A stretch of 64,000 nucleotides of DNA from Candidatus Heimdallarchaeota archaeon (GCA_019057815.1 JAHLWR010000015.1:1-64000); one strand, 5' to 3'; shown: positions 26,105 through 62,334, counted from the stretch's first letter. Notes: generated by a model not told the origin, from the letters alone. Translations and numbers: made by a program.

Positions 26105-26289
26105 GTCATCACTTCAATAATTTCTTTTTCTTGTTCAACTAATAATATCGAGTTTCATTTATAAAGGAGTAAAATTATCTGATATATTATATTAAGAATA
26201 AATGCTTAACATTCCTATGCTAATAGAAAAAGAGAGAAAAAAAAGGAATTTCTTGTGTTTATTTATGTTTACAACCTGTATTTTTTCTG

Positions 26290-27710
26290 TTAAAGTGATA
26301 CATTTATGATGAGTTTTTGTCCTGTTGTCTTATACGACAGACATAGGTGAGTGTATTTCGTAGAGGTCACAATATAGCGCACAGGAGATGGTCTATACTC
26401 ACTCTAAGCGGATACATCACGTATCCTCCTACCCCGTTCACCTTACATTTAGGTAAAGCTTTCGGATCGCTTTTTTTCAAGATATTGTAGGCAGCATTGA
26501 CATCAGCGTTGATCAGATGACCATGAGAGGATCTAAACAAGCCTCGAGTTATCCGTTTTCCAGCATAGTGCTTCCTAGCTTCTGGGAATTCGTTATCAAG
26601 GAAACTACATTTAGAGGTATACTTTTCGGGGATGGTCTCCACGTTTATCCCTCTCTCTGCTGCTTTGTAGCGTAAGATGTCGATGATTCGCATGAAGGGG
26701 ATGGTGACAAACATTTGGGTTATCTTCTTCCAGAAATGCATCCCTTGTTTCCATTTCTTGTTGTAGCCGATAATCACCTCATGTAGCCCTCGTTCTACCC
26801 ACAAGTCTACCAAGTAACAAGTGAGCTGGTGGATAGCTTCTTTAAGTTTCCTTCGCCACTTCTCCTTAAGCTTGTAGTAGGCTTGCCCATAACTGAGCCT
26901 AGTGTTTCCTTTCAGTAGCTGCCTTTGCTGTTGAGCATATTGGATCTGTAATTGTTTCTGTTTTTTCAAATAGAATTGTGTTATACTCTTTATTCCTTTC
27001 CCTGCATCCTTGATAACAATCGGTTGGTTTCCGAGGTTATCCACAAAGGTGGCAAGGTTGACCATCCCTAGATCTACTGCTCCTTTTCTGATCATCTTCT
27101 TCCTAAGATTAGGTATACTCTTCAAGTAAACGAGTTCAAGGGTATAGCCTACTCTTCGGGGAACGATTCGCACTTCTCTTAGCTTTGTGATGGAAGTCAA
27201 TCGTGTTTTGTAATTGTATCCTACTTTCTTTGGAAGCACTAACCACTCGTTGACAATCCTTGCCTGCTGGTTGGTGAAAATAGCTACCACTTCCCCGTTC
27301 TTGGGTTTGTAATTCGGTGGCTTGGGCATAGCGAAGAACTGCTCAGGATTGCTTTTCCACTCCTTTAACGCTTGAAAAAATCCTTTCCAGTTTCTGCACA
27401 GGAGTTTAAGTGTGTGTTGTGCGGTGTGCGCAGGAAGCATGCGGTAACACTCTTCTTGCTTAAGTAGCTTATTCAAATCGTTATAGAACAGCAGTTTCTT
27501 CTCTTTGTTTAATGATCTTTTTATCAGAAAATTTGCTCGATTATAGAGATTCTTTACTTGATGACACAGTGTGCTTAATGCAGGATGATAGTTCACTTCT
27601 ATACACTCCACTCTCAGAACTGTTGTCATCGCTTCTTTATCTAGATATTCTTATAAAAACGCTCTTAATATTTGCGCTAAACCGTCCCATTAAACTTATT
27701 CATTTGTAGT
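26290..27710 (-). mobile_element. Non-autonomous IS200/IS605-superfamily (IS1341-like) element, ends approximate
   Basis: Solo tnpB with no tnpA; visibly higher GC than flanks; short hairpin downstream of the stop (CTGTCG-TATAAGA-CAACAG) in the expected omegaRNA/right-end region. Confidence 0.6.
26367..27629 (-). CDS. tnpB: TnpB RNA-guided endonuclease
   Basis: KNLYN, RuvC-I AVDLGMVNLA, IGYNKKWKQ, EKYTSKCS, RuvC-III INADVNAAYNI. Confidence 0.93.
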   Translation of the reverse strand: MTTVLRVECIEVNYHPALSTLCHQVKNLYNRANFLIKRSLNKEKKLLFYNDLNKLLKQEECYRMLPAHTAQHTLKLLCRNWKGFFQALKEWKSNPEQFFAMPKPPNYKPKNGEVVAIFTNQQARIVNEWLVLPKKVGYNYKTRLTSITKLREVRIVPRRVGYTLELVYLKSIPNLRKKMIRKGAVDLGMVNLATFVDNLGNQPIVIKDAGKGIKSITQFYLKKQKQLQIQYAQQQRQLLKGNTRLSYGQAYYKLKEKWRRKLKEAIHQLTCYLVDLWVERGLHEVIIGYNKKWKQGMHFWKKITQMFVTIPFMRIIDILRYKAAERGINVETIPEKYTSKCSFLDNEFPEARKHYAGKRITRGLFRSSHGHLINADVNAAYNILKKSDPKALPKCKVNGVGGYVMYPLRVSIDHLLCAIL

Positions 27711-27777
27711 TAAGAGGACACCAAGACAAAAACCATTTATATTTAGGGCGTTTATTGTAATATAAAGGGATTAAAAG

Positions 27778-60393: not shown

Positions 60394-62176
60394 GATCTAA
60401 CCTTCCTTTGACAGCTTGATAAAGTTCATCTGCTCTTGGTTTAATGAAAAGGCTTTCTAGCATGTCTAGATTTAGACTTTGAGGATTAAGCGATTCTTCG
60501 TTTGGAAAATAGGAAGAGATCTTTTGAGCTTCTTCTCGAGTACAATTTGAAAGAAATTGAATATAGACAATGCTATCATTATAACCGTCATCAAATTTTT
60601 TCATTGTTTTCGAGTCACTTTGTTGCTGGTTTTTTGAGAAAGTTCTAACAACATTGAGCATAGCTTTGGTTCTATTATTCATCCTTTCGCTAATTTTGTT
60701 GTTGAAGAGTTTCTGCTGATTTCTAGCTAAAACTTTCTGAACATTCAGTTGAAGAGATATTTTCTCAAAATTTTTCTCTCTACTCAAGTATTTGTAAAGA
60801 ATTTTTTCTTCTAATGTTCTATGAGTGATGAAAATATATCTTTCTCCTTCATTCTCTTTCCTTTCAGTAAACCATGTCACTCTTTTTGGGACATTGAAAT
60901 AAATCTCAACATCTGATTCTACATTTATTTTTTTTGTGACTATCAAAACATTAAGCTTACCTGAGTTGTAATCTTGAATTAGCTTCTCTTTTTCTTTTTT
61001 AGAATAATTACTTGACATGAACCTATTTGATAAACCTAAAGTCGCTATACGAATAGGTAATATATTAGCTATGGTTTTATTATTAACTATAACTAAGAAT
61101 CGAGAATAACCTTTTTTCTCTCTTAAATTACTGATTAACTGTATAAATCTAGAAATTTTTGGGTGTTCTGTTTGAGTTTCTAAGAATTCAATTTCACTGA
61201 TTAAATCTTTAATTAAACGTGAATTAACGAATTTCTGACGCCATTCGTAAAGATAAGCTGAACAATTACCTTCCAAAACTTTTTTTCTTTGAAATAGAAT
61301 ATATTGTTTAGCTGCTCTAAGACCAAAGACTTCCAATAATTCTTTGATATTTTGGATATTGATATACTCAACCATTTTTTGTATATACCCATCTGCTTCC
61401 GTATAACCATATTCTAGATGTAGTTTTTCAGAAATGTTTTTTATCTTGCTTTTAATAGTAAAAGGATTAAGATGTAATTTTTTCTTAAAAAGCGTTTCAT
61501 ACTCTTTGAGAGTTCTATTCAAATCGTAAACTAAATTGTATATAGACTTGTTTAAGGGTACAACTATGTGTTTCTCATGCGATTTCAACAAGCTATTCTG
61601 GATCATTGGGTTGCTTGATTTGCAAAACTCTATCTTTGTTATCAGTAGATGAGAACAGATTTCAGCTATTTCTTCTGCTTGCGTAAAAGGATAAGCTGTA
61701 AATCCCACAATTTTAATAAAAGGATTTGTTTGATAGAATACTTCCAGTAATTTTACACTAGCATGTTTACCTTTGATTGTGTGTGCATGATCAAAGATTA
61801 GAAAACCAAAATCGTTAGAATTAAGGTTTTTACGTAACAAATCGTTGTGAAATAGGTGAGGTGTTATTACAACTATTCTTTTCTGAGCATAAGATCTTTT
61901 ACGTTTCTCTGTAGATTCTAATGAAGTCGGAAAGTAAATTTCTTTTTCTGCAAATTCTTTATTCTTGAAATAATTCTCATAGTAGCTTTTAAGTGATGAT
62001 TTAGGGATGATTATAGCTATTCTTTTTTCGGAAAATTTGCGACTATAATGACCGATTATCGATAGAATGATATTTTCTTTATCCAAATTAATTGGATGGA
62101 GTAATAGCAAATTCTCTTTTGATGTAAGACCTAAAATTATCTGGCTATATGTGTCAGGTACATAATTCATTGTCAA
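60380..62176 (-). CDS. Hef/FANCM-like SF2 helicase fold, catalytically degenerate, with C-terminal (HhH)2-like domain
   Basis: NLLLLHPINLDK (no GKT), TPHLFHNDL, FDHAH (DEAH lost), GFTAYP, HPKI; no motif VI; no ERCC4 nuclease. Confidence 0.72.
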   Translation of the reverse strand: MTMNYVPDTYSQIILGLTSKENLLLLHPINLDKENIILSIIGHYSRKFSEKRIAIIIPKSSLKSYYENYFKNKEFAEKEIYFPTSLESTEKRKRSYAQKRIVVITPHLFHNDLLRKNLNSNDFGFLIFDHAHTIKGKHASVKLLEVFYQTNPFIKIVGFTAYPFTQAEEIAEICSHLLITKIEFCKSSNPMIQNSLLKSHEKHIVVPLNKSIYNLVYDLNRTLKEYETLFKKKLHLNPFTIKSKIKNISEKLHLEYGYTEADGYIQKMVEYINIQNIKELLEVFGLRAAKQYILFQRKKVLEGNCSAYLYEWRQKFVNSRLIKDLISEIEFLETQTEHPKISRFIQLISNLREKKGYSRFLVIVNNKTIANILPIRIATLGLSNRFMSSNYSKKEKEKLIQDYNSGKLNVLIVTKKINVESDVEIYFNVPKRVTWFTERKENEGERYIFITHRTLEEKILYKYLSREKNFEKISLQLNVQKVLARNQQKLFNNKISERMNNRTKAMLNVVRTFSKNQQQSDSKTMKKFDDGYNDSIVYIQFLSNCTREEAQKISSYFPNEESLNPQSLNLDMLESLFIKPRADELYQAVKGRLDLVSD

Positions 62177-62334
62177 ACCCTCTTATAAGACCTAATCTTC
62201 CTGTTATTTTTATCACTCATTATGATAATCTGTAAATTAGTTTATAAGGAGGAAAAATGTTGTAATATTTAATTCTTCCAAAAAAGAACTAAAATTGGGA
62301 AAAACTTACATATTATTAGTTATCTTAACTTATT

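Follow-up and report, generated by a model that had tools for sequence, protein, structure and literature searches.

We describe a promoter module shared by separated genes for recombination and surface proteins in the family Heimdallarchaeaceae. It was studied in a window consisting of the first 64 kb (64,000 nucleotides) of contig C44 of a Candidatus Heimdallarchaeota archaeon (GCA_019057815.1, JAHLWR010000015.1:1-64000), whose genome (G000) measures 3.74 Mb with 33% G+C. The initial annotation had proposed that separated recombination and membrane loci of this window share a pyrimidine-rich element in the position of the TFB recognition element (BRE), and this proposal is borne out by conservation over five genera, by occurrence before non-homologous genes and by clustering in closed genomes. 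The BRE-position element stands as described, but the shared unit is larger than was thought, as it also comprises SAATT and ATTAT sequences downstream of the TATA box and, in four units, a GACATG start context. The observation goes beyond chance because orthologous promoters in other genera keep the module, and sequence comparison supports its interpretation as a second conserved core-promoter class of Heimdallarchaeaceae. The window also encodes, as had been noted, a divergent TFB paralog, hereafter TFB-X, which might read this class.

All six minus-strand strings of the initial annotation were found where they had been placed, and every one of their TATA boxes lies upstream of a real transcription unit. 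The promoters and units are given below in window coordinates; scores come from the module matrix and ranks from the leave-one-gene-out test, both described further on.

26142-26177, minus strand: module promoter of the RadA-paralog/adhesin operon (Rad51/RadA domain); 22.1 bits, top 0.5%.
18560-26104, minus strand: operon of the RadA paralog and a 2109-aa Ig-repeat adhesin.
40084-40119, minus strand: module promoter of the operon for the 153-aa, HerA/VirB4-like and helicase proteins; 14.7 bits, top 0.7%.
34297-40070, minus strand: operon of the 153-aa protein, a 1051-aa HerA-VirB4-like protein and a Hel308-like helicase.
43261-43296, minus strand: module promoter of the 465-aa unit; 15.5 bits, top 0.7%.
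40142-43247, minus strand: operon of 465-aa, 220-aa and RadB-like 351-aa (ATPase) proteins, RadB-like by family match.
45150-45185, minus strand: module promoter of the 610-aa surface/membrane gene, the weakest member; 10.0 bits, top 2.7%.
43304-45136, minus strand: gene of the 610-aa surface/membrane protein (p610), without family match.
58490-58525, minus strand: module-like promoter of a candidate structured RNA; 11.1 bits, flank score in the top 1.5% of promoters.
About 58365-58482, minus strand: candidate structured RNA, GC-rich, downstream of the XPD-like gene; fold z-score -2.4.
62225-62260, minus strand: module promoter of the Hef-like/XPD-like operon; 25.0 bits, the best of the window, ranking above every control promoter.
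58585-62170, minus strand: operon of a Hef-like protein followed by an XPD-like helicase (family matches).

The label "nuclease" given earlier to the 153-aa protein could not be verified, this protein matching no family. The TATA boxes of the module sites are genuine archaeal ones (4.8-6.5 bits) and face their genes. From TATA start to ATG, the five protein-coding units measure 61 nt (RadA paralog), 37, 37, 37 and 78 nt (Hef-like), and the genome-wide modes of this distance in G000 are 28-42 and 53-62 nt. The module thus resembles the canonical archaeal BRE-TATA promoter in having an 8-bp TATA box, whose spacing from the start is the usual one, and an adjoining 5' element in fixed register, oriented towards the gene. 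It differs in what occupies the BRE. Expectation-maximisation (EM) on 2185 upstream regions (3156 genes were called in G000) gave VRAAA-NN-TTTAWAWA as the normal promoter, with A at 0.77-0.88 at -4 and -3 and T almost excluded at -7 (0.01); here -n denotes nucleotides before the TATA box and +n nucleotides counted from its start. At the canonical BRE positions, the six sites score -4.4 to -13.0 bits, compared with more than +2 for canonical promoters, and none has a purine-rich BRE. The A-rich BREs quoted earlier for ordinary genes of the window (purP, the M55 peptidase gene, the gene at 54978 and vapB) are present as claimed. The idea that the six sites carry a reversed canonical BRE on the opposite strand was rejected, the sequence 3' of TATA not fitting VRAAA.

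The evidence that carries the module comes from other genera. The comparison set consisted of 30 other genomes of Heimdallarchaeaceae (family f1) from five genera, two of them closed: Ca. Heimdallarchaeum aukensis (G005) and H. endolithica (G006). Orthologs of each of the five protein-coding units occur in most of these genomes. In the regions 5' of the orthologous start codons, the flanks and spacers have diverged, and what is common to the five non-homologous units is the module: a T-run followed by C/T, typically (A)TTTTCTCC.CC, then TATA, t-S-AATT-t directly after it, and ATTAT about 19-23 nt past the TATA start. The distance from TATA start to ATG in the orthologs is 34-93 nt for Hef and 32-39 nt for the other four units. 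As examples, TTTTCTC..CC-TATA-tGAAA is kept in orthologs of the RadA-paralog promoter, and (A)TTTTCTCC.CC-TTTTTAAAT-CAATT at 23 of the 25 out-of-genus ortholog promoters of the 153-aa unit; the p610 promoter has a palindromic TATA. A module matrix was built by EM on 113 non-redundant ortholog promoters, leaving the own genus out, and reads as follows.

Positions -16 to -11: no information.
Positions -9/-8: T 0.77/0.89.
Positions -7 to -4: C+T at least 0.77.
Position -1: C or G 0.90.
Positions +10 to +13: A 0.75, A 0.69, T 0.66, T 0.74.
Positions +19/+20: A 0.89, T 0.86.

The upstream element of the module is therefore close to the opposite of the canonical BRE. In the leave-one-gene-out test, the matrix was retrained without each gene in turn, so that every site was scored by other genes from other genera, with about 1000 TATA promoters of G000 as controls. 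The module sites of G000 then rank in the top 0-2.7% of TATA promoters and in the top 0-6.8% of the BRE-poor ones. Over the whole genome, 21 hits reach 19 bits or more; every one of them is intergenic, although intergenic DNA makes up only 12% of G000. The site of the candidate structured RNA stands outside the matrix training set. This RNA is 94% conserved in the sister species only; no DNA match was found outside the genus, and the cross-genus footprint comparison covers the five protein-coding units. It matched no Rfam family, even at E values up to 1 on its own strand, and a CTTTCAAT box stands 20 nt upstream of its promoter site.

Three further observations concern these units. (i) Of 82 orthologs representing four non-homologous cluster genes, 50 carry GAC immediately before the ATG, versus 0.8% of 2098 genes genome-wide, often as AGACATG or tGAAAGACATG (window starts 26104, 43247 and 45136, minus strand); the Hef-like gene has no GAC, and this context may be a common start-site or translation-start signal. 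(ii) A degenerate duplicate of the p610 promoter, tactttatcaag-TTTATGAA-caaatc, lies at 46547-46554 (minus strand) between two tandem paralogs of 401-404 aa; it has no gene downstream on its strand and was presumably carried along by duplication. (iii) The housekeeping radA (G000 C26:30529-31639) has a different, A-rich promoter, gaaaaaaagcatttCTTATATA, and its conserved leader ends with agagaaagtgaaa before the ATG across relatives.

Judged from G000 alone, the similarity of the six sites makes a weak case and stays undecided. Among genes with a TATA hit, 29% are equally BRE-poor (below -4 bits), as are about 18% of well-positioned promoters in a positional profile. Compared with random sextets of BRE-poor promoters, the six sites are only marginally more alike, whether measured by pairwise identity (p=0.018), information content (p=0.054), C content (p=0.023) or pyrimidine content (p=0.08). 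The genome-wide motif clustering anchored on TATA that had been proposed as a check did return a T-run class, about 8% of promoters in a three-component mixture, but coding and non-promoter controls split equally. We consequently rejected a genome-wide "T-rich BRE class" as evidence, such a class being mostly made of terminator T-runs of the preceding gene and of composition. Indeed, promoters are no richer than other sequence in T-runs next to TATA-like words (6.4% versus 9.0%), and the pyrimidine-rich hits shun the main promoter position of 28-42 nt and resemble terminators.

The closed genomes provide a second line of evidence, as they place the module in one island. A degenerate module pattern, searched with at most one mismatch, gave 45 hits in G005 and 57 in G006 (reversed-pattern control: 36 and 38). 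A single stretch of about 58 kb holds 10 of the 45 and 12 of the 57, for about 1 expected, and within it lie all three perfect matches of G005 and four of the six of G006. We annotated 140 kb of G005. Between 260 and 321 kb, 13 module promoters (11-22 bits, 27-50 nt from the ATGs) stand among canonical ones and precede the orthologs of all five units and eight further genes, and the 60 kb before the island contain canonical promoters only. The island encodes surface proteins, a HerA/VirB4-like protein and spare recombination proteins of the RadA, RadB, Hel308, Hef and XPD types. On contig C44, past the window, two more module promoters were found, before a LuxC/aldehyde-dehydrogenase-like gene and a 381-aa gene, and genes of similar size carry module promoters in G005. 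As for function, PADLOC recognised no complete known defence system; the Hel308-like helicase (34297-36459, minus strand) also hit models of Hachiman HamB helicases (E 1e-33), and the XPD-like protein (58585-60393, minus strand) hit DinG models of type IV CRISPR systems (E 1e-49). From such matches, the island could be defence-related instead of serving DNA exchange.

Contrary to the initial annotation, membership of the class extends past recombination and membrane genes. Elsewhere in G000, genes of giant surface proteins related to p610 have high-scoring module promoters, and promoters of TnpB/insertion sequence (IS) genes match as well. The best matrix matches of the genome belong to a promoter-like element, atatttttcgag-TTTATATA-ccaatttgagaataat, of which about 10 copies score 18-29 bits, usually 101-105 nt upstream of open reading frames of 133-137 aa without Pfam or NCBIfam match; it is probably a mobile element. 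The loci are the following.

G000 C31:17865-19118, C22:28136-30058 and C12:124017-125975, plus copies: TnpB-type genes (OrfB_IS605/Cas12f-like TNB domains) of 417, 640 and 652 aa, with module-like promoters of 15-22 bits.
G000 C38:174379, C7:62925, C39:90738, C24:64080, C48:219905 and about five more: the repeated promoter-like element.

Because TnpB genes and the repeated element carry module promoters, mobile elements either use the same promoter code or seeded it. The TnpB gene that adjoins the RadA paralog in the window (26367-27629) has a promoter of only 9.3 bits.

The candidate reader of the module is the divergent TFB. The gene at 62335, first considered under this name, is an S9 prolyl oligopeptidase gene and was discarded. 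The TFB-X gene and its promoter are located as follows.

4335-5288, plus strand: TFB-X, divergent full-length TFB paralog of 317 aa, with a zinc ribbon and two cyclin repeats.
4200-4320, plus strand: TFB-X promoter, with TTCACTTTCAAT-type boxes at 4200-4211 and 4269-4280, a C/T-rich stretch and the TATA box CTTATAAA at 4297-4304.

The Pfam TFIIB model finds three canonical TFBs in G000, all on other contigs, and TFB-X scores 17.9 bits with it, under the gathering cut-off of 23.6. Profile comparison (hhalign) aligns TFB-X with the canonical TFBs of G000 over 271 columns, from the ribbon to the C-terminal helix-turn-helix (HTH), at a probability of 98.6% and E 1.1e-15, and the NCBIfam TFIIB model matches residues 9-317 (E 1.2e-5). 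Against the PDB, the TFB-X profile hits the P. furiosus TFB ribbon 1PFT (E 0.0015) and has only weak matches to the Pyrococcus TFBc-TBP-DNA complexes 1AIS/1D3U, so that structures confirm the zinc ribbon only and the core rests on hhalign. The four cysteines of the C4 ribbon (C19, C22, C36 and C39) are invariant in 16 orthologs. By these alignments, TFB-X is a true full-length TFB homolog. Two parts depart from the canonical sequence: the recognition helix reads P-[ST]-T-T-[LM]-R-x-H, with H305 invariant, versus T-E-V-T-L-R-N-R (TEVT[VL]RNRYKE), and xTHFL replaces PEWRAF in the B-reader. A profile survey of 28 other genomes of family f1 and 272 other Asgard genomes gave strong matches (E 1e-49 to 1e-159) in 23 of the former and no strong match in the latter, where the best E value (7e-21) is one that ordinary TFBs also reach; the four sibling families that were sampled yielded no TFB-X. 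A peptide-pattern scan of the genome collection, with one pattern, returned metagenome-assembled genomes (MAGs) labelled mostly Heimdallarchaeota. TFB-X and the module both occur in family f1, a co-occurrence whose weight is limited by MAG incompleteness and shared ancestry. Wherever an assembly is contiguous enough to measure it, 20-70 kb separate TFB-X from the cluster.

The promoter of TFB-X is itself pyrimidine-rich before TATA (module score 11.0 bits, leave-one-gene-out top 1.6%). In all 23 readable ortholog loci, a TTCACTTTCAAT box stands about 12-30 nt upstream of TATA, and G000 has only three exact copies of it, all intergenic. We consider this conserved box a candidate operator controlling TFB-X. 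The other copies are at C12:104464 and C1:199095, one before the ArsR-type HTH gene at C12:104540, where ttcctctct-CTTATAAT follows, and one before a HEAT-repeat gene. A related box, of the AACTTTCGATT type, is present upstream of TATA in most p610 orthologs. The conserved boxes of the TFB-X and p610 orthologs contain ACTTTC, which fits the A(N)TTTC motif of Sulfolobales, a short one. As a motif for the whole regulon, TTCACTTTCAAT was rejected: it is found at TFB-X, at p610 orthologs and at a few other genes, but not throughout the module promoters.

From these data we propose a mechanism to which we would give about an even chance: TFB-X, together with TBP, would read the T/C element in place of the housekeeping TFB and co-activate the set. 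TBP would bind TATA as usual, and TFB-X, with its BRE-reading helix rewritten, would bind the T/C-rich element. Production of TFB-X would activate the whole set at once, in the manner of a sigma factor, and TFB-X itself might be controlled via the conserved TTCACTTTCAAT box at its own pyrimidine-rich promoter. The wider scenario is offered only tentatively: the module would be a second basal-promoter code, in which a sigma-like TFB-X, induced via a damage-like box, reads an "anti-BRE" and switches on a recombination/surface (possibly DNA-exchange) island, TnpB/IS elements having adopted the code for expression in the same condition.

Several observations weigh against such a reading. (i) The module is degenerate in G000, too much so for pattern counting; a strict IUPAC pattern yields only four hits on the contig, of which two are doubtful. 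(ii) The TnpB/IS promoters match the module. (iii) TFB-X lies outside the island. (iv) Several MAGs have the gene set without a detected TFB-X, among them G028 (92% complete), which has module promoters on Hef and p610. (v) Other TFB-like paralogs of G000 could read the module. One example, C12:110074-110589, has a 357-aa frame, aligns with the TFB-X profile in the cyclin part only (E 2.5e-13) and is kept as a gene of 359-370 aa in many genomes of the family; contig C12 has the most module-type hits (8 versus 3.2 expected). (vi) The TFB-X profile has no match in G001, an 85%-complete MAG of the sister family f2, which has a module-like promoter composed of T-run/CT, TATA, GAATTT and GATTA before a HerA-like gene, as follows.

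L199 (G001:C135) 1205-1257: aaatttcttct-TTTAAAAA-cgaatttgggatta, module-like promoter of a 1208-aa HerA/VirB4-like gene; 37 nt to the ATG.

(vii) In S. acidocaldarius, promoters responsive to TFB2, the one experimentally studied full-length alternative TFB, have TATA and BRE like those of TFB1 and differ only in spacing (bioRxiv 10.64898/2026.09.06.749720).

The main rival, which we regard as rather unlikely, is that the T/C element is the site of a sequence-specific regulator comparable to Orc1-2, either an activator recruiting the ordinary TFB-TBP or a repressor sitting over the BRE, TFB-X being another target or unrelated. In TFB-TBP-DNA structures, the footprint of TFB covers the upstream BRE and TATA, and the conserved SAATT and ATTAT fall outside it, which favours this rival, as do the module-like promoters found where TFB-X was not detected. 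Many module instances also read ATTTTC, fitting A(N)TTTC, and the box upstream of the TFB-X and p610 orthologs contains ACTTTC. This fit is a weak resemblance, the hexamer fixing only five bases in a genome of 67% A+T, and no candidate regulator was identified in the island. The parallel with Sulfolobales, where Orc1-2 binding this hexamer activates ups, ced and tfb3 (PMC6061795), concerns two points: recombination/DNA-exchange-type genes and a TFB paralog are marked by a short T-rich motif, and the own promoter of the TFB paralog carries the ACTTTC-containing box. The two systems differ in position, since the Orc1-2-bound A(N)TTTC element lies upstream of BRE/TATA, 30-80 bp from the transcription start site (PMC6061795, PMC6101591), whereas the element of the module occupies the BRE position in a fixed TATA register.

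We judge it improbable that the promoters are alike through descent from one promoter spread by duplication or by IS200/605-TnpB mobile elements, without co-regulation. The best genome-wide matches do include the element of about 10 copies and the TnpB-type promoters (417, 640 and 652 aa), and a TnpB gene adjoins the RadA paralog. At orthologous promoters, however, only the module positions are kept while spacers and flanks have diverged over five genera, which indicates selection on function and not recent copying, and the module stands at a fixed distance from the start codon before non-homologous genes. Finally, the view that nothing specific is involved (accessory genes rarely expressed from weak promoters without a BRE, T-runs of the preceding terminators, and chance in an AT-rich genome) can appeal to the frequency of BRE-poor TATA hits and of T-runs away from promoters given above and to several module promoters in gaps of 47-98 nt after same-strand genes, but is very improbable and largely refuted by the specific bases conserved in fixed register (C/T at -7 to -4, C/G at -1, AATT, AT), by the leave-one-gene-out ranks and closed-genome clustering, and by the module's presence at the divergent promoters of the RadA paralog and the Hef-like gene, where the gaps are long.

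The proposed reading by TFB-X can be situated among known systems. TFB3 of Sulfolobales, invoked by the initial annotation, sets no precedent for an alternative reader of the BRE: this truncated co-activator has neither B-finger nor DNA-binding HTH (PMC6101591), unlike TFB-X, which is full length with an HTH. The cell-division regulon of S. acidocaldarius TFB2 likewise joins a full-length TFB paralog, a defined gene set and an own promoter; its promoters keep a TFB1-like BRE, whereas the module promoters replace the BRE outright. As a functional analogy only, bacterial alternative sigma regulons also combine an alternative initiation factor, an own promoter code, an accessory gene set and probable autoregulation, although sigma factors are unrelated proteins acting on an unrelated promoter architecture. 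With respect to the canonical archaeal promoter, the module adds SAATT and ATTAT 3' of TATA, and its class is confined to the island and mobile elements.

In archaea and eukaryotes alike, TBP and TFB/TFIIB initiate transcription at a single kind of core promoter, and we know of no clear case of a TFB paralog with its own DNA code: among the Sulfolobus paralogs studied, TFB3 binds no DNA and TFB2 keeps a similar BRE. In the literature searched, we found no paper describing promoter classes in Asgard archaea. The module matrix lets annotators find further members of the class. By sequence alone, the module picks out spare recombination and surface proteins as a candidate co-regulated set, which may serve DNA exchange, repair or defence. 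If TFB-X reads the module, promoter choice by paralogs of a basal factor would become directly testable in the archaeal lineage closest to eukaryotes.

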